Source: Candidatus Poribacteria bacterium (GTDB taxonomy: Bacteria; Poribacteria; WGA-4E; PCPOR2b). From it: a stretch of 64,000 nt of DNA. The notes under the pieces are model-generated. The model was not told the origin of the DNA, did no database searches, and worked only from the letters and a program-made list of their open reading frames with translations. Shown one piece after another: positions 11,820-22,968 of the stretch. A program made the translations under genes and the position numbers. The first letter of the stretch is position 1. Each line of letters begins with the position of its first letter. The DNA is taken from the NCBI GenBank assembly GCA_965208325.1, contig OZ242326.1, forward strand, positions 3,744,001-3,808,000, read 5' to 3'.

Positions 11820-12777
11820 CATTCGCAATTAGCAGTTTCAAGCTTGTGCCTCAAACTATTTTCGGGTAAGTAGTTTTGACTTCCTCCCATTACAAATTCG
11901 TCGGAAGAAATCAGAACATCCAATTAAACAACGGCTAGGATATATATGCGAAGCATAAATTTCCATTCGTCAATTCAGCACATCACCCCCTTTCTTTTAA
12001 TGCCTGCTTTAGGTGAAGTACAGCTTGTTTCCATGATTCAAATGGATGTTGCAATGGCATAAATGGCTTTTCAATAGTCTGTATTACTTCTGGTTATATA
12101 CGGTTTGATGTCGTTTGGTTATCGTTGTAATCATTGTGGTCGACATCATCGTCGTGCATCGCCGACGGGGTCGCCGCCTCAACTTCAAAGTATTCCCCAA
12201 GTTGAGCAAGTACATGGTTCGCCCGGCGTTTCCAACCAGCATGCCATTGTTTGAATTTATCCGGTTTGAGGTCTACAAGACGTTGATAATGCGCTAGTTT
12301 CTCCTCATGGAATCGAGTAATCAACTCATTGTCGACATCCGGGTCGGATTGCAATTCAATTTCAACGGTTTTTTTCCATGTGGCGACCGCCCCGCTAGTG
12401 TTGCGCCCCCATGCACCGTCGTCAACGGCGCCCGCCATACGTTGAATAATCTTGACGGCAGCCTTGCCGGCATTTACAACGAAGTCGCTATAGATATATT
12501 GAAGAAATTCGGGCAGTTCCCATGTGTGATAGCGTTCAAGATAATCGACATAAAACGCCTCAACGATGTCTTGCCGTTTTAGGAGGCCTTCGACGGTCTC
12601 AGGCGCGTCCGGGAATCGGTCGAGGTTTTTGGGACGCCAGATCTCCCAGCTCTGTTTCGTGATACCGTCGCATGATATGCCGCCGACGTTCGCAGGTTCG
12701 CTACGGTTAATTCCCTTCTCGCTACCGATGATTAGCTGAATAATGTTTGTTCTGTCCATTTAATTTTAACCTCATTC
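11820..12777. repeat. Segmental duplication copy 2 (GH108 gene plus downstream region)
   Basis: Direct repeat of ~2283-3220; homology ends at aacctcattc just upstream of the GH108 start codon. Confidence 0.9.
12094..12759 (-). CDS. Glycoside hydrolase family 108 lysozyme/endolysin-like, copy 2
   Basis: Nearly identical protein to 2570-3202, with a few substitutions and a slightly longer C-terminus. Confidence 0.85.
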   Translation of the reverse strand: MDRTNIIQLIIGSEKGINRSEPANVGGISCDGITKQSWEIWRPKNLDRFPDAPETVEGLLKRQDIVEAFYVDYLERYHTWELPEFLQYIYSDFVVNAGKAAVKIIQRMAGAVDDGAWGRNTSGAVATWKKTVEIELQSDPDVDNELITRFHEEKLAHYQRLVDLKPDKFKQWHAGWKRRANHVLAQLGEYFEVEAATPSAMHDDDVDHNDYNDNQTTSNRI

Positions 12778-13365
12778 CGTTAGTTTATGCACGAGCGACT
12801 TCAACCTTTTTCGACCGCGGGCCAGTCGATTGTTCACGACTGCCTCGCTGAACCCCAACTCTTGAGCTATCTCCTTATGGCTCATACCGCTCAATCGTAG
12901 TAGTAATGGCTGCCGCTCTGAGTCGGGAAGTTGTTCGATTGCCCTTGCAAGCCTGTCCCGCATGTCGACGAGTTCTTGCTGTTGTTCATCGCGCCGATGT
13001 GCAAGCATTGCGGCGTCATTCGATACCTCCGCTTCATTGGCGTCGCGAGAGAGTGAAAGGCACTCAATCAGTTTTTGGCGTTCTCAATACGTCCTTGCTA
13101 TAATCTGAGATGCTATGCGGAACATCCAGTTTGCAAATTTTTCCGGTTTCTTAATTCGCCACAGATTCCGCGAGATGTCAATAAAGGTCTCTTGGACAAT
13201 GTCTTGAGCATCTTCTTGGTTGCGCATTTTATTGAAAGCGAACGAGAGTAGGGGCGATTCGTACCGACTATAGAGCAAGGAGAAAGCGTCCTTGTCGCCC
13301 TCCAAAACCTGACGCACCAATTCGGCGTCGCTAGATTTTTCGCCAGCTTGCATCCCACTCCCCAA
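12772..13365 (-). pseudogene. ECF sigma-70 factor interrupted by one in-frame TGA
   Basis: Region 2 (DAQDIVQETF...FANWMFRIA) and region 4 (AIEQLP...GMSHKEIAQELG...VNNRLARGR) share a frame across TGA at 13086-13084 (...ARTY*ERQKL...). Confidence 0.85.
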
Positions 13366-13799: not shown

Positions 13800-14366
13800 G
13801 TGCCGATGATCCCTGATGAAGTCTATGTTCAAAAAACTATCGAAGGGGATGTAGAATCATTTAATGAGCTTGTGCAGCGTCATCACACCAGAATTTTCGG
13901 GTTAGCTTACCGCATGCTGTCCAATCCTGAAGATGCGGCGGACGCAACACAAGAGGCGTTCTTGGAAGCGTATAAATCGATAAAATCGTTCCAATTCCAA
14001 TCAAAGTTTTCGACGTGGTTGTACCGAGTCGCAATCAATACGTGCCAACAATGCATCCGCAAATCCGACTCGCGTGCGCGTACGCTGTCGGCATACACAA
14101 AAAGCGTCGCAGAAAACGACGCGCAATATGACAGTGATTGTCCGGATCGGATTTTGGTGAAATCGGAGAGCGATCGGATGGTACAGGAGGCAATCAGCCA
14201 GTTGCCGCCTAAACAGCGGATAGTTGTTAGTCTATTTTACATGCAGCATCTCAAATATCATGAGATTGCCGAAGTGCTAGATTGTCCGGAAGGGACAGTG
14301 GCATCGCGATTAAATACGGCGATAAAGACCCTCAAGTCAAAACTGCAAAACCCGCATAACCTATAA
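13800..14366 (+). CDS. ECF RNA polymerase sigma factor (SigW/RpoE-like)
   Basis: DAADATQEAF, FSTWLYRVAIN, LPPKQR, YHEIAEVLDCPEGTVASRL. Confidence 0.95.
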   Translation: MPMIPDEVYVQKTIEGDVESFNELVQRHHTRIFGLAYRMLSNPEDAADATQEAFLEAYKSIKSFQFQSKFSTWLYRVAINTCQQCIRKSDSRARTLSAYTKSVAENDAQYDSDCPDRILVKSESDRMVQEAISQLPPKQRIVVSLFYMQHLKYHEIAEVLDCPEGTVASRLNTAIKTLKSKLQNPHNL

Positions 14367-14390
14367 TCTTTACGAAACGAGAGGACGGCT

Positions 14391-14921
14391 ATGGATCTCG
14401 ATTGCAAGCGTGTTATTGAAAATCTGAGTCTACATTCGAATCCGGACCTTTCTCACGAAGAGAGAGCTGAGTTCAAAATACATCTCGTTCAATGCCAATC
14501 CTGTCAGAAGGAATATGAGGAGATGTTGCATACGGCGGCAGTTCTTGAAAGCCTTCCTGCGCTCGATCCGCCGCCGGATCTCCTTGGGCGGACTCAAGAA
14601 CGGATTACCCGGGAACATCGGCGGCATGGTTTGGCGTTCTTTGCCAACCCGTTCGCCAGCATCCTTAAGTTACTGAAGCTGGATCCCCATCCGACTTTTG
14701 TCAACTGCACAGCCATGCTCTTTTACCTGATGCTCACAGTTTTTCTGGCGAAATTGACCTTTTTTGACACAACAGAGCCGACGCCGGTGAGCACACCCAA
14801 TAGGTCTTTGCACCCGGATGCACAGATTGTGGGTGTGCCGTTAGGTTCGATAAAGGCAACCGTACAGCGCATTGGGACTGAAGAAGAGTCCAAGGAGGGT
14901 TCAACAAACTTGAATAGATAA
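14391..14921 (+). CDS. Zinc-finger (ZAS) transmembrane anti-sigma factor
   Basis: HLVQCQSC (HxxxCxxC) motif and one TM segment; directly follows the ECF sigma. Confidence 0.85.
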   Translation: MDLDCKRVIENLSLHSNPDLSHEERAEFKIHLVQCQSCQKEYEEMLHTAAVLESLPALDPPPDLLGRTQERITREHRRHGLAFFANPFASILKLLKLDPHPTFVNCTAMLFYLMLTVFLAKLTFFDTTEPTPVSTPNRSLHPDAQIVGVPLGSIKATVQRIGTEEESKEGSTNLNR

Positions 14922-15212: not shown

Positions 15213-16037
15213 ATGAATCTCCAACCCACGGATTTTATCCTAGAAATTGGGAGCGGACACAATCCGAAAATTCGATCCGATGTATTATGCGACAAATTTA
15301 TTGATGATGACACCCAGCGGGGAGGAAAGATCGTCGCAGATCGGCCAGTGGTTGAAGCCGATGGACAGTATCTACCATTTGCGGAGGCATCGTTTGACTA
15401 TGTTATTTGTTCGCACGTGTTAGAGCATGTTGAAAATCCCGACTTACTAATTTCTGAACTAATGCGTGTCGCCTCGCGGGGCTACATAGAAACACCGTCC
15501 GAGATTGCCGAGCGGCTTTACGGCTGGGAATATCATAACTGGGTTATCAATTTAATTGACGGTCAGTTAATCATCCAAAAAAATCTGGCCAAAAATCCGT
15601 TCGGTCAGCTTTTCCACACGCTTGCGGCTCGTGATAGAAATTTCGCCAAATTTCACATCGCCCACCATGACATCTTTCTCGTGAAGTATGAATGGGCGGG
15701 CAAAATCGACTACAAAATTCTCCCGCCGGATACATCGCCGCTTGATTTAGATTCACCCGAGACGATTGATACCATGCTAAATCGGGTCAATTGTGTACCA
15801 CTTTGGCAAAGGTGGTTGCGAGTTGCGAGAGGTTCCATTCCAAAACGGGTTGTGTTTAGGACAAAGACTTTTTTAGCCAAGCGGCGCATAACCCCGAAGA
15901 AAACGCTGCAAGAGATTGTTGTGTGTCCGGTTTGTAAAGGAACGGTAGAGTGGGAAACTCATCAAATCTGCTGCGGACACTGTGATATCAACTATCCCAT
16001 TGTCCGAAGAATTGCTCGGATGCGGCCTCCGGCGTAG
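15213..16037 (+). CDS. Class I SAM methyltransferase with C-terminal Trm112-like Zn ribbon
   Basis: ILEIGSG, LPF..ASFDYVICSHVLEHV; C-terminal CPVCKG...CGHC..YPI...I. Start moved to MNLQP. Confidence 0.85.
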   Translation: MNLQPTDFILEIGSGHNPKIRSDVLCDKFIDDDTQRGGKIVADRPVVEADGQYLPFAEASFDYVICSHVLEHVENPDLLISELMRVASRGYIETPSEIAERLYGWEYHNWVINLIDGQLIIQKNLAKNPFGQLFHTLAARDRNFAKFHIAHHDIFLVKYEWAGKIDYKILPPDTSPLDLDSPETIDTMLNRVNCVPLWQRWLRVARGSIPKRVVFRTKTFLAKRRITPKKTLQEIVVCPVCKGTVEWETHQICCGHCDINYPIVRRIARMRPPA

Positions 16038-16291
16038 TGAAATTAAAGAAACCGAGTTTTGAAGAAATAGTATCAAATGACCTGATGATAGTTGGAATGC
16101 GCGTGGTTACTGACTTCGAGCCATCATCAAATGAGCGAGTTATGTTGGCTTAATTAGCTTATCCGTCAAGAAATTCATTTGGTTTGGCTAGAAGCGTGAC
16201 AAAGTATACCAAAATGGCTATGGCGTGCCAAGCCGATGCCAAAGAAAGAGACGTTGTTTTCCCATGTCTAAGCAATAATAGGCGTATGCTG

Positions 16292-17185
16292 TCATTGCAA
16301 GTCTCCTGTAGGTTTGGAACTGGACGGCACGGTGTTATCTTTGCCGTCTTCCAAGTTTGCGTTGATGTCATTCAGCGAATGTTGAGGAATTAGGTCGAGA
16401 TATTGAGAGATGACGCGCTTGGAAAGTTTGGTAATCTGAGAGATTTTGTCAATGTCATCGGTAGCGGTGCGAACAATCTTAACGGACTCATAATCATGGA
16501 TGTATCGGTCAACAGCTTCTTTGGAGTGCTTGGTTTTGGCAGCAATGGTCGGAGTCAGGTGCCCTTGTAGATAAAGGGTAATAATCTCCTTCTTGTGTGT
16601 AATTGCCGCCGATAAATCGTGAATGTTGCCGCGAGTGGGCAAGATTTTTCCACTGGTGCTTTGCCACTCGTTGACATACTCACTCACTACTGGGTCGCGG
16701 ACGTTGAGCAACACAGCCAGGTCTAGTTGAGTCAACAATGCCCCTTGGTCATAGGCTTGATAACACCATCGCACCAATCGATGAATTCTGAGTTCACGAG
16801 AGCTGAAGCCGCTGTAATAGTGTTCAATGTCCTCGGGGGCCACAAAGCTTAAAACCACAGGCTTCATGCGGGTTTTAACGATTGACTTGGCTCTCTGTGG
16901 ATATTCGTCAATCGGCACAGCCATCCAAACCAGTTGACCATAGCTAAGCATTCGTTCATCAGGAAGTTGTTCTCCAGCGGCGAGTTTATCAAGTGGCAAG
17001 CGAATCAGGAAATAGTCTTCAATAGTTTTGACGATGTCATCGACAATGGCTTTGGCAGTCACTTCGCCTTTGTCATACCCATAGGAATTGATAAAGCGAT
17101 GAATCAGCAACTGCCGCAACGATTTATCATTGATACGTCTGATTTTCTTCTCGTTGATTTCGGTTCGAGTCAATGATTTACTCAT
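16292..17185 (-). CDS. DUF1670-like protein B
   Basis: R..R...QAYDQGALLTQLDLAVLL, PTRGNIHD...THK..II.LYL.G, T.HS..AVDRY; paralog of the upstream gene. Family name is from motif recall. Confidence 0.8.
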   Translation of the reverse strand: MSKSLTRTEINEKKIRRINDKSLRQLLIHRFINSYGYDKGEVTAKAIVDDIVKTIEDYFLIRLPLDKLAAGEQLPDERMLSYGQLVWMAVPIDEYPQRAKSIVKTRMKPVVLSFVAPEDIEHYYSGFSSRELRIHRLVRWCYQAYDQGALLTQLDLAVLLNVRDPVVSEYVNEWQSTSGKILPTRGNIHDLSAAITHKKEIITLYLQGHLTPTIAAKTKHSKEAVDRYIHDYESVKIVRTATDDIDKISQITKLSKRVISQYLDLIPQHSLNDINANLEDGKDNTVPSSSKPTGDLQ

Positions 17186-17982
17186 GAGTTTTCCCCCTTT
17201 TTTTCATCAACGGGTTCAGGATGAAGTAAAGTCGTCATTCGCTCTGTATGTTCGTATTTATCATACAGGGAGAGATACTCACGAATCAATCGGTCAGAGA
17301 GATGGGTGATGAGCCGTATCTGTTCCTTTGGAAAGTCTTGATGATGGAGGGTTGCTACCTGAGTGAAATTACGCAAGTATCTCAACACGGCGCGTTCGGT
17401 GTGGTTCGTCTTTCGCTCAATGTCGGTGAATTGATAGCCTTTAAAGTACAGTTCTAGGATTTGGGTTTTATGAGAGATGCCGGGGCCCATGTCGTGTTTG
17501 GCGCCGCGAGTCATTACAAAAAACCCTTGCTGTTTCAACTGTCGAATGTCTCGTTTGACGGTCGCCGGGCTGGTGGTTAATAGCACCGCTAAATCTTCAT
17601 AGCTGAGCAAAGCGTCTTGGTCATAGGCTTGTTTGGTTAACCGTAAGATTCGATGTCGTCTGAGTCCTGCAAGTCCATAGTTGGCTAACACCTCAAGATC
17701 GGTGTGCACATCATTGAGGGTGAGTTGGCAGGAGACCTTTTTGGCTAAGGCAATGTGTTTACCTGCGGGTTCGTCGGCGGCTACGGCTTCATAGCAGATT
17801 TGGCCTGATGTGAGTTTAATATCGGCGTGTTGGGCAAAGTAGGAAGAAATCTGATTATAGTAGGCTTCGGCAAGGATAGGCATCAGATTGAAGTCTGACG
17901 CAATCTTCTGAATAATTGCCGCTCTCGCCGTCTTTGATTCCAGACGATTGATACCGTAGTTTGAATGACTTTGTGGTTTCAT
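17182..17982 (-). CDS. DUF1670-like protein A
   Basis: RRHRILRLTKQAYDQDALLSYEDLAVLL, TRGAKHDMGPGISHK, TNHTERAVLRY; GGAGG SD before ATG 17982; ATGA overlap with protein B. Confidence 0.8.
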   Translation of the reverse strand: MKPQSHSNYGINRLESKTARAAIIQKIASDFNLMPILAEAYYNQISSYFAQHADIKLTSGQICYEAVAADEPAGKHIALAKKVSCQLTLNDVHTDLEVLANYGLAGLRRHRILRLTKQAYDQDALLSYEDLAVLLTTSPATVKRDIRQLKQQGFFVMTRGAKHDMGPGISHKTQILELYFKGYQFTDIERKTNHTERAVLRYLRNFTQVATLHHQDFPKEQIRLITHLSDRLIREYLSLYDKYEHTERMTTLLHPEPVDEKKGENS

Positions 17983-18202
17983 AATGACCTCCATGGATTC
18001 ATGGTAATTGATGGAAATAACATCTGTTATCAGTTTAACTCATGGGGTCATTTGATACAAACTATAAAAAACTCGGTTTAAAGCACCACGGTTTACGCCG
18101 CTGGGAGGCAAGAACATAACGTTAGCGACTATCTACATTCTACATGACCATAAAAAAACGGAGAAAACTGACCAAAAGCTGGAATAAGGAGTGCTCACAC
18201 CA

Positions 18203-19174
18203 ATGGAAGACCTTCAAGATACATTCAATGATTCGGAAGAACGCAACGTCATCATTATCGGCGGCGGTACGGCTGGCTTTGCCGCTGGCGTTTACACCTC
18301 GCGGGCAATGCTTGAACCGCTGCTCATTACTGGCGATGCGCTCGGCGGACAGCTTTCGTTGACGCTAGACCTGGAAAACTATCCAGGCTTCTTCGGCACG
18401 GAAGCCGTGGAATTCATCCAAGGCATGCAGAAACAAGCCGAGCGCTTTGGGACGGAAGTGCGGTTCGACACCGTGACAGCGGTCGATTTCAATCGCCATC
18501 CGTTCTATGTGAAGACGTATGAAAAGGAGTATCATGCCAAGGCGGTCATCATCTGCACCGGCGCCTCGCCGCGAACACTGAATATCTCCGGTGAAGCAGA
18601 ATACGGCGGGCGCGGAGTTTCGTACTGCGCAACTTGTGACGGATTTTTCTTCCAGGACCAGCGCCTGATTGTTGTCGGCGGGGGCGATGCGGCGCTTGAG
18701 GAAGGGCTGTTTTTGACAAAGTATGCCTCGGAGGTTTATGTGGTTCACCGCCGCGATCAACTCCGTGCAAGCCAAATTATGCAGGCACGCGCCTTCAAGA
18801 ACGATAAGATGAAATTCATTTGGGACACGGTCGTTGAAGAGATTCAGGGCAATAGCGGGAAGGTTACAGGGGCGCTGCTCAGAAATGTAAAGACCGATGA
18901 AAAACAGGTGTTTCCTATTGATGGTGTGTTTATCTTCATCGGGCATATCCCGAATACAGACCTGTTCAAGGGTATTATTGACATGGACGACCAAGAATAC
19001 GTCGTCGTCGATAACCTCCAGCAGACCAATATCGAAGGCGTTTTTGCAGCAGGTGACGTGCACGATCACGTCTTCCGCCAGGCTATTACTGCCGCTGGTA
19101 CGGGGGCAGCCGCAGCCATCTCGGCAGAGAAATTTATCGCTGCGTTGGAAAACCGCACCTACCCCGGGCAGTAG
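18203..19174 (+). CDS. trxB: Thioredoxin-disulfide reductase
   Basis: IIIGGG, GGQL..T..LENYPG, GVSYCATCDG, VGGGDAALEE, HRRD, GVFAAGDV.D..FRQAITAAG. Confidence 0.97.
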   Translation: MEDLQDTFNDSEERNVIIIGGGTAGFAAGVYTSRAMLEPLLITGDALGGQLSLTLDLENYPGFFGTEAVEFIQGMQKQAERFGTEVRFDTVTAVDFNRHPFYVKTYEKEYHAKAVIICTGASPRTLNISGEAEYGGRGVSYCATCDGFFFQDQRLIVVGGGDAALEEGLFLTKYASEVYVVHRRDQLRASQIMQARAFKNDKMKFIWDTVVEEIQGNSGKVTGALLRNVKTDEKQVFPIDGVFIFIGHIPNTDLFKGIIDMDDQEYVVVDNLQQTNIEGVFAAGDVHDHVFRQAITAAGTGAAAAISAEKFIAALENRTYPGQ

Positions 19175-21715: not shown

Positions 21716-22968
21716 CAGGGCAAAGGCATCTAAATTTTGTGCTTGACATGAGAGGAATTTGGGATATGCTTGTGTAAAATCTTCCAGAGGCGCATTCCCC
21801 ATGTCTAATCCCCCTATTTCCTCTATTGAAGCGCATTTTGAGTCATTGCCAGATCCTAGACGAGTTGATTGTCGCACACCCCATAAATTGCTTGATATTG
21901 TCGTAATTACTATCTGCGGGGTTATTTGCGGCGCCGATAATTGGGTGGCAATTGAAGCATTCGGAAACGCCAAGCATGAATGGCTAGCCAAGTTTTTGGA
22001 ATTACCGAAAGGCGTCCCGTCGCACGATACATTCAGGCGTGTGTTTAGTGCGATGAACGCTGCCAAATTCGAGGCATGTTTTATCAACTGGATGCGGAGT
22101 GCCATTGAAATGACACAAGGTCAAGTGATTGCCGTTGACGGAAAACAGCTTCGTCGTTCCTATGATACTCATAACAACAAATCAGCCATTCACTTGGTTA
22201 GCGCTTGGGCCTGCCATCAAGGGGTAGCGCTAGGACAACTTAAAGTTGCCGACAAGTCGAACGAGATTCCAGCCATACCCCAATTGCTTGAAGTATTGGA
22301 CGTGTCAGGGTGCATTGTTACTATTGATGCGATGGGTTGTCAAACCGACATCGCTCAAACCATTGCGGATTCAGAAGCCGACTACGTTTTCGCGCTTAAA
22401 GCCAATCAAGGACAGTTGTATGAAGATGTTCAACTTCTGTTTGATGGCGTCTCAACCGGCGGCATAAGAGATATAAAGGTTGACTCGACGCAAACAATTG
22501 ACGGCAATCATGGACGTATTGAAACCCGTTCTGCTTATGCGATTGCAGACCCCGGTGTAATTTCCACGCTTAGAGCAAGTGAAAACTTTGTCAATCTCAA
22601 CTCAATCGTCAAAGTTACTGCCGAGCGCGAAGTCAACCAAAAGATAACCACGGAGTCACGTTACTACATTTCTTCACTTCCCGGTGATGCACAACAGTTG
22701 CTTGAAGCCACCAGACATCACTGGCGGATTGAAAACTCATGTCATTGGGTGTTGGATGTTGCTTTCCGTGAGGACGCCTCTCGGATTCGTAAAGATAACA
22801 GCGGAGAGAACTTCGCCATTATCCGACGCATCGCGCTCAATTTACTCAAGGCTGAAAAGTCAACCAAACTTGGCGTCGCAAACAAACGGCTCAAAGCCGC
22901 ATGGGACAACAATTACTTGACTACTATTTTAGAAACTCTATTCTGAATAATCAGGTGCGTTTGCCCTG
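21716..22968 (+). mobile_element. ISAs1-family insertion sequence
   Basis: TIRs cagggcaaaggcatctaa and tcaggtgcgtttgccctg; 10-bp target duplication tgacgagtcg (21706-21715) and tgacaagtcg (22969-22978), one mismatch. Confidence 0.95.
21801..22946 (+). CDS. ISAs1-family DDE transposase
   Basis: DPR, PSHDTFRRV, AVDGK, KSNEI.AIP, TIDAMGCQ, HGRIETR, HW.IEN..HWVLDV.F.ED. Confidence 0.97.
   Translation: MSNPPISSIEAHFESLPDPRRVDCRTPHKLLDIVVITICGVICGADNWVAIEAFGNAKHEWLAKFLELPKGVPSHDTFRRVFSAMNAAKFEACFINWMRSAIEMTQGQVIAVDGKQLRRSYDTHNNKSAIHLVSAWACHQGVALGQLKVADKSNEIPAIPQLLEVLDVSGCIVTIDAMGCQTDIAQTIADSEADYVFALKANQGQLYEDVQLLFDGVSTGGIRDIKVDSTQTIDGNHGRIETRSAYAIADPGVISTLRASENFVNLNSIVKVTAEREVNQKITTESRYYISSLPGDAQQLLEATRHHWRIENSCHWVLDVAFREDASRIRKDNSGENFAIIRRIALNLLKAEKSTKLGVANKRLKAAWDNNYLTTILETLF

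Follow-up and report, generated by a model that had tools for sequence, protein, structure and literature searches.

A window of 64,000 nt from the genome of a Candidatus Poribacteria bacterium (GenBank assembly GCA_965208325.1, contig OZ242326.1, positions 3,744,001 to 3,808,000 of the forward strand) contains, between a methyltransferase gene and a gene named trxB, a segment that encodes two adjacent paralogs of the DUF1670 family (PF07900), denoted here A and B. Judging from the comparison of its copies and of occupied and empty sites, this segment is a mobile, site- and orientation-specific insertion sequence (IS) of 1,999 bp (window positions 16067-18065, minus strand, from ATAG to CTAT). 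We regard it as a strong candidate for a new type of transposable element, the ISfinder database being outside the comparison, and it is plausible that the DUF1670 pair itself is the transposase. The initial annotation, made from the sequence of the window, had proposed a mobile element with the DUF1670 pair as its sole genes; this proposal is borne out by an empty allele, identical copies and ends shared with relatives, and the length of 2031 bp that it assigned to the element has to be replaced by 1,999 bp.

The source genome (4.71 Mb in one contig) contains, in addition to the copy in the window, three more full copies that are 100 % identical to it. When the four copies are aligned together with their flanks, they are identical over approximately 2,033 columns except for a single-nucleotide indel in an A-run at one junction, and all four are flanked by the same 12-bp blocks, that is, all lie in hairpin loops. 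Among the 30 relatives searched for the element and for an empty junction, a sister species of the same genus (G002) has the methyltransferase and trxB flanks next to each other, joined by AAAG-AAACCGAGTTTT-GAAGAAAAC-ACTCGGTTT-AAAG, which is the intact hairpin; in two further genomes (G001 and G003), both the element and the hairpin are missing from this position. The copies in G002, G006, G018 and G029 match positions 665-2669 of the query only, equivalent to 16064-18068 of the window. Empty hairpins, including both the G002 allele and those of the source genome, read ...CCGAGTTTTGAAG followed by AAAAAA and CTCGG..., and occupied sites read ...TTTTGAAG-AA[ATAG...CTAT]AA-AAAACTCGG..., with the element placed between GAAG-AA and AAAACTCGG. 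Comparison of the empty and occupied forms, together with the borders common to the four identical copies and the relatives, therefore delimits the element proper to 16067-18065, with AA on each side. As far as the sequence shows, these two AA dinucleotides may stem from a duplication of 2 bp of target, from a crossover of 2 bp, or from the element itself bringing along one of them.

The repeat blocks, the spacers and the AAAG repeats described in the initial annotation are all present in the window. The 12-bp outer block AAACCGAGTTTT occupies 16049-16060 and has its reverse complement at 18068-18079, the 13-bp inner block GTATCAAATGACC occupies 16070-16082 and has its reverse complement at 18046-18058, the spacers between outer and inner blocks (16061-16069 and 18059-18067) are 9 nt each, and AAAG lies outside the outer blocks at 16045-16048 and 18080-18083. 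The two 13-mers are the sole matches in the window with at most one mismatch (shuffle mean 0.11; at least two matches in 0 of 100 shuffles). The 12-mer pair is not significant within the window, with at least two matches in 18 of 100 shuffles, and exact copies of its two arms number 100 and 105 genome-wide. In place of bipartite ends, the outer blocks and part of the spacers form the arms and the loop of the target hairpin. The left half of this target DNA (16049-16066, no strand assigned to either half) comprises the arm AAACCGAGTTTT, followed by the loop letters GAAG and AA (16061-16066), of which the last AA, at 16065-16066, is the junction dinucleotide; the right half (18066-18079) comprises the junction AA at 18066-18067 and the arm AAAACTCGGTTT. 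The terminal inverted repeats of the element itself are imperfect and 16-20 bp long. The one downstream of gene B (16067-16082) reads ATAG-TATCAAATGACC, and the one upstream of gene A (18046-18065), GGTCATTTGATAC-AAAC-TAT, corresponds to the same sequence with 4 extra nt; neither is given a strand.

Several identical copies with sharp common borders and an empty site characterize the element as an IS, and further observations are of the same kind. In the relatives, internally deleted copies retain both ends (e.g., a copy of about 702 bp in G010), and many homologs reside on contigs of approximately 2.0 kb, as collapsed repeats would. Public sequencing runs were examined as contigs (Logan), and among those listed none bridges the whole locus: their contigs end at 16064-16076 and 18050-18067, as expected of a repeat, and in two runs from other studies, contigs from the trxB side pass from 18066 leftwards into TTTTGAAG or CCGAGTTTTGAAG, the empty form, for 8 and 13 letters only. 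Apart from the four copies, only relic ends carry the end sequence in the source genome, so there is no second transposase-bearing element with the same ends; with two conserved genes and without such a partner in this genome, the element does not resemble a miniature inverted-repeat transposable element. The initial annotation had named three outcomes that would speak against mobility, namely the lack of an empty allele, of extra copies and of terminal repeats at other DUF1670 loci; an empty methyltransferase-trxB junction, additional copies and such repeats, in both relatives and distant pairs, were all found. At two other places in the source genome (genome positions 1973097 and 1973548), hairpin loops carry about 11 extra letters that consist of the last 7 nt of the element at its window-right end and A's, and the same extended form is seen as a joint of 16067 to 18059 in three of the runs (X1, X4 and X5); these loops may have arisen as footprints of excision, or may instead be an older variant of the loop.

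The target hairpin is itself repetitive: the source genome has 79 matches to ACCGAGT..ACTCGGT, usually in the form GAAACCGAGTTTT-GAAGAA-AAAACTCGGTTTC, and 75 of these hairpins have loops of at most 14 nt (46 of the GAAG type, 17 of the CTTC type and 12 others). Many form tandem arrays whose period is about 159, 193, 216 or 352 bp (for instance at genome positions 2032413-2033500, that is, L003:57-1150, and at 1894821-1897567, 3456491-3457128 and 4209647-4210877), and 23 of the 75 lie at most 80 nt from the 3' end of an open reading frame (ORF) of at least 120 aa, as against 10 % of random places.

The relatives show a second and more common kind of target. We listed 80 loci, from one genome per species, all in assemblies named either Candidatus Poribacteria or uncultured bacterium, with A proteins 79-96 % identical to that of the window and up to 14 loci in a single assembly. 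Both ends were found 1.9-2.03 kb apart at 73 of these loci and not at the remaining 7. Among the 72 copies with full flanks, 12 occupy the same hairpin loop, and the other 60 lie elsewhere, in sites that lack the outer blocks. In 55 of these 60, AAR and a stop codon follow directly after the element (AAGTAA in 21, AAATAG in 13, AAGTAG in 9, AAATAA in 7 and AAGTGA in 5), and the same number come after reading frames ending like ...TRKMLILK, the exceptions being L038, L047, L074, L084 and L107. Both of the target proteins that were tested have the type IX secretion domain TIGR04183 (Por_Secre_tail) at the C-terminus (31 bits, cut-off 23). About 55 copies in the relatives thus appear to be inserted just before the last Lys codon and the stop codon of genes for type IX-secreted proteins. 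Every one of the 72 copies has AA at the end of its left flank, 71 have it at the start of the right flank, and the orientation of the insertion is constant throughout. Given that hairpin and gene-end targets share T at positions -10 and -7, G at -3, AA/AA at the junction (slash) and R at +2, the hairpin loop seems to imitate the target at gene ends.

Gene ends of the source genome carry traces of the same element. Relic or miniature ends are present at five gene tails (genome positions 2718953, 2657334, 2325643, 2139018-2139404 and 4057022), at the Lys-stop of ORFs ending in ...RKMxIxK; one of these is a remnant of approximately 390 bp in which the second end is degenerate. These relics suggest that the gene-end habit is the older one in this genome and that the four identical hairpin copies are recent. 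In G018 (contig positions 245555-247941; loci L056 and L033), a full copy is directly followed by a relic left end (AAATAGTATCAAATAACC), as expected if an IS had re-inserted into a target regenerated by an earlier copy.

Gene B (16292-17185, minus strand, 297 aa) and gene A (17182-17982, minus strand, 266 aa from the ATG at 17982, with an alternative ATG at 17994) overlap such that the stop codon of A and the start codon of B share ATGA at 17182-17185, which agrees with the translational coupling proposed initially. The likely start of A comes after a Shine-Dalgarno sequence, GGAGG (17988-17992). Both proteins match PF07900 far above its curated cut-off of 25 bits (A, 215.5 bits, E 7.6e-64; B, 201.9 bits, E 1.1e-59), and they are 34 % identical to each other over 186 residues. 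A full-text search found no literature on DUF1670 or PF07900. In the structural model of A (predicted local distance difference test, pLDDT, 89.5), three helices precede a beta hairpin (61-88), the loop of which has the conserved sequence EPAGK; after a long helix come a winged helix-turn-helix (124-151), a linker (159-172) and two more helix-turn-helix units; the model of B (pLDDT 75.7) has the same plan. The models hold two beta strands of at least six residues and one short strand. The linker motif TRGxxxDxGxGxSHK is invariant and modelled with low confidence (pLDDT 59). Conservation reaches at least 90 % in each of the A and B families at R/K159-G160, G166, H171-K172, H194, Y202 and Y236 (A numbering) and, in the A family alone, also at D95, R108, R114 and D130; B has Thr at the position of the invariant Ser170 of A.

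The initial annotation had noted the absence of DDE, HUH, serine and tyrosine recombinases, and indeed no such family was matched in Pfam, NCBIfam or PHROGs; more broadly, no transposase, recombinase or nuclease family was detected in A or B by Pfam, NCBIfam, PHROGs or a profile search against PDB sequences. NCBIfam and PHROGs gave nothing above their cut-offs, and the profile of A retrieved helix-turn-helix proteins only (best E 0.025). Specifically, neither Pfam nor NCBIfam matched a DDE (RNase H-like) family, and none was listed in the fold searches, which alone do not decide the question; the same two databases gave no match to the resolvase catalytic domain (PF00239), to the DEDD family of IS110/IS1111 or to tyrosine integrases, the latter being also absent from the best 50 fold matches of either model; and Pfam gave no match to Y1_Tnp, the HUH enzyme of IS200/IS605. 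Of the kinds of residues that make up the R-K-H-R-H/W-Y set of tyrosine recombinases, the two proteins do have invariant R, H, K, H and Y, which fall within helix-turn-helix units. Foldseek comparison of both models with PDB and BFVD yielded nothing at E of 0.001 or below. An exhaustive fold aligner (VIA-align) returned only helix-turn-helix matches, for A with a best Z of 6.8 (TrpR, NiaR) and residues 1-95 barely covered, and for B with a best Z of 6.3 (DesR, sigma region 4, resolvase DNA-binding domains and the winged helix of topoisomerase VI-A) and residues 1-127 barely covered; none of these exceeds the background for helical proteins. Structural look-alikes without PF07900 in the ESM Atlas (best score 0.80) are small archaeal helix-turn-helix proteins and serve as a lead only. 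The predicted A+B complex scored 0.23 against a mark of 0.32, without controls, and counts neither way.

The pair extends far beyond the close relatives. Among 80 loci from metagenome contigs with A proteins only 30-35 % identical, 71 have tandem DUF1670 ORFs, mostly with a 4-nt overlap, and the remaining 9 are cut off shortly after A by the end of the contig or locus. Five of 60 complete distant pairs had too little flank; in 33 of the remaining 55, terminal inverted repeats scoring at least 11 (a threshold set without a shuffle control) span 1.67-2.0 kb, with cores GGACATxTGTCC or GGAAATATTTCC. Scores of 8-10 were obtained for another 15, and the last 7 lacked an 8-nt seed. Some single polypeptides contain three DUF1670 stretches (P0130, P0133, P0137 and P0140, 930-952 aa) or two (P0155, P0161 and P0216, 513-572 aa), with no other kind of domain, and these fusions support the notion that A and B work as one unit. 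Altogether, the pair occurs in Poribacteria, in Gemmatimonadota (names as given by the sources), in Methanosarcina acetivorans (the control) and in many metagenomes.

Conservation along the element, measured in gene orientation over 30 of 59 distinct family members, is highest in the first 30 nt (99 %) and the last 19 nt (91 %), about 80 % in the coding part, and 38-68 %, with many indels, in the 3' non-coding stretch (16083-16291, minus strand). This stretch folds no better than shuffles (z = +0.25) and shows no conserved RNA, and a search of 15900-18300 against Rfam gave one chance-level match (E 0.29). A guide RNA of the IS110 kind was considered and dropped because the stretch is poorly conserved and has no Rfam match. 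An RNA that begins outside the element could fold its leader (17983-18045, minus strand) so that the inner terminal repeat (GACCCCATGAG) pairs with the ribosome-binding site and the start codon. The leader fold has a z of -2.39, with 3 of 200 shuffles folding as well, and each of the 15 consensus pairs is kept in 21-24 of 24 distinct leaders. This pairing is probably the usual device that silences read-through transcripts. A scan for promoter and terminator consensus sequences gave a number of sites that did not exceed that of shuffled sequences, with no site in the leader; a -35/-10 pair read from the alignment within the terminal repeat is a candidate only.

The reading that we favor, to which we give a slightly better than even chance, is that the element is an autonomous IS of an undescribed family, in which a complex of A and B would bind the ends, read the target and carry out the chemistry by a mechanism that cannot at present be assigned to a known class. 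Under this scenario, A and B would act jointly and bind the near-palindromic core of each end (GGTCAT/TGATAC). They would read a target of about 15 bp ending in ...GAA/AAR, normally the Lys-stop of genes for type IX-secreted proteins and here the look-alike hairpin loop, and would break and join DNA at the AA, either with a 2-bp duplication or with a 2-bp crossover as made by a serine recombinase. The candidate catalytic or DNA-contact residues would be those invariant in both paralog families, R/K159-G160, H171-K172, H194, Y202 and Y236. The left end, AA-ATAG, would restore the Lys-stop of the target gene, so that insertion would do little harm, and read-through transcripts would fold and hide the ribosome-binding site. 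In its most specific form, which we put forward tentatively and rate somewhat short of an even chance, DUF1670 would be a new, helix-turn-helix-only class of transposase or recombinase that acts as an A/B hetero-oligomer, with strand exchange at the 2-bp AA through R/K159, H171, K172, H194, Y202 and Y236, and with direct reading of the target, the specificity being for this reason evolutionarily retargetable from gene ends to hairpin loops.

Several points weigh against this scenario. The searches revealed neither a catalytic fold nor a catalytic motif in the two proteins; both models are helix-turn-helix arrays with a small N-terminal domain, the N-terminal 95 residues are hardly covered by the fold searches, and the invariant linker motif could be a minor-groove-binding arm between helix-turn-helix domains. 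To our knowledge, every known autonomous IS has a recognisable enzyme, and proteins that seem only to bind DNA would on this comparison call for outside help. Furthermore, an excised circle, a covalent intermediate or a transposition event has not been observed, the run data consisting of contigs only, and the conservation of the leader pairing comes without compensatory changes.

Such outside help is the content of the strongest alternative, which we consider possible and clearly less probable than autonomy: A and B would only recognise the ends and the target, and either a recruited host enzyme (a Xer-type tyrosine recombinase, a topoisomerase or a replication/repair nuclease) or an unlinked transposase would cut and join. 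By analogy, the element would then resemble those XerCD-exploiting elements that carry only an activator. Uniformly DNA-binding fold matches and the lack of a detectable catalytic family are what one would expect of such accessory proteins, and the base-precise, orientation-specific junctions are like those of site-specific recombination. However, the distribution of the pair over Poribacteria, Gemmatimonadota, M. acetivorans and metagenomes implies that the helper would have to be near-universal, and the targets are many and varied (around 100 hairpins and dozens of gene ends), in contrast to the single dif-like site of Xer-dependent elements. As for an unlinked transposase, no other element of the source genome shares the ends; a DDE_Tnp_1 gene lies 3.7 kb from the copy in the window, the one copy whose surroundings were examined for it, and is part of its own element.

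It is highly improbable that the segment is a regulatory gene pair, rather than a transposon, that was copied between hairpins by homologous recombination or gene conversion. The proteins do look like transcription factors, and the repeat shared by the flanks of all four copies in the source genome could support recombination, but the borders are base-identical at unrelated targets, hairpin loops as well as gene ends, across many genomes, with constant terminal repeats and AA, and neither the deletion derivatives that retain both ends, nor the number of loci in a single assembly, nor the many contigs of IS length fit this explanation. Lastly, the possibility that the whole segment of 2,031-2,039 bp is the element, with bipartite repeats of 12 and 13 bp and an AAAG duplication, is refuted despite the perfect inversion of both blocks, the equal spacers and the outer blocks at all four copies in the source genome, given that the outer blocks form one uninterrupted hairpin in the empty allele of G002, enclose no element in 75-79 hairpins of the source genome and are absent at 60 of the 72 relative copies, and that the supposed AAAG duplication is missing from the other three copies, which carry GGAG/TAAA, GGAG/CAAA and TAAG/CAAAG there.

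Known systems share individual features with the element. Examples of palindrome-targeting IS are IS1397 and ISKpn1 of the IS3 family and members of IS110/IS1111. Like the present element, IS that target repetitive extragenic palindromes (Tobes and Pareja 2006, PMC1525189) enter intergenic hairpins that recur in the genome, with the place and the orientation of insertion fixed, and are present in multiple copies in one genome. Those elements have DDE or DEDD transposases and, in IS110, also a guide RNA, whereas the element described here has no such match and its non-coding parts are not conserved; moreover, the main target of the DUF1670 family is a gene end and not a palindrome. In IS110/IS1111 the guide RNA is conserved, in contrast to the poorly conserved non-coding parts of this element that lack an Rfam match, and IS200/IS605 elements have sub-terminal hairpins and no terminal inverted repeats, unlike the repeats of 16-20 bp present here. 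Like IS630/Tc1-mariner, the element has terminal inverted repeats that are short, is bordered on either side by a fixed target dinucleotide and, according to the models, binds DNA through paired helix-turn-helix motifs joined by a conserved basic linker; footprint-like short remnants may also be common to both. It differs in having AA instead of a duplicated TA at the junctions, two proteins instead of one, a target specificity of about 15 bp and no DDE/D domain, the models having just two long beta strands.

Elements mobilized by serine recombinases (TnpA of IS607 and the large serine integrases) are similar in the 2-bp junction, in the polarity set by a non-palindromic dinucleotide and in the lack of a long duplication. 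Resolvase DNA-binding domains can be superposed on the second helix-turn-helix of B (5cy1_A, Z 5.5, root-mean-square deviation 1.1 over 41 residues; 2r0q_C, Z 5.5), with scores no better than those of unrelated helix-turn-helix proteins. Pfam and NCBIfam detect no resolvase catalytic domain in either protein, and the position of Ser170 in A is not serine in B. Tn7 at attTn7 (the TnsD pathway) likewise chooses a conserved gene end and inserts harmlessly, with five genes including its own transposase, as against two helix-turn-helix proteins in the present case. XerCD-exploiting elements share the lack of a recognisable recombinase of their own; they use one dif-like site per replicon, in contrast to the hundreds of potential sites here, and the number and diversity of the targets argue against site use of this type.

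All autonomous prokaryotic transposons known to us employ a DDE/DEDD, HUH, serine, tyrosine or Cas1 enzyme. The present element is evidently active and precise to the base in its movement, yet its two proteins match none of these classes; if the DUF1670 pair catalyses its own movement, it would represent a sixth kind of transposase; if a host helper does so, this would be a widespread IS that borrows a host enzyme, and either outcome would be new. The analysis also suggests a mobile-element role for a Pfam domain of unknown function found in both bacteria and archaea. As an example of programmable and harmless site-specific integration, the element would be both natural and compact: it enters type IX genes at their last codon and rebuilds the stop, or, in this genus, uses a look-alike hairpin loop. 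The whole system amounts to a pair of small genes and a pair of ends of about 20 bp, and can be tested directly.

As to the surroundings of the element, the protein encoded on one side combines Methyltransf_11 and Trm112p domains in Pfam, and that on the other side matches Pyr_redox_2, the name trxB being based solely on this Pfam match. The DDE_Tnp_1 gene mentioned above, an ORF at 21759-22946 (plus strand) that also contains DDE_Tnp_1_assoc, encodes the transposase of an unrelated IS. Elsewhere in the window, the region 13800-14921 (plus strand) encodes a sigma factor of the extracytoplasmic function (ECF) type (13800-14366, by Pfam), and the ORF that follows it (14391-14921) may be an anti-sigma factor. 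In addition, small ORFs at 12772-13365 (minus strand) resemble, judging from their translations only, pieces of a second, split sigma factor.

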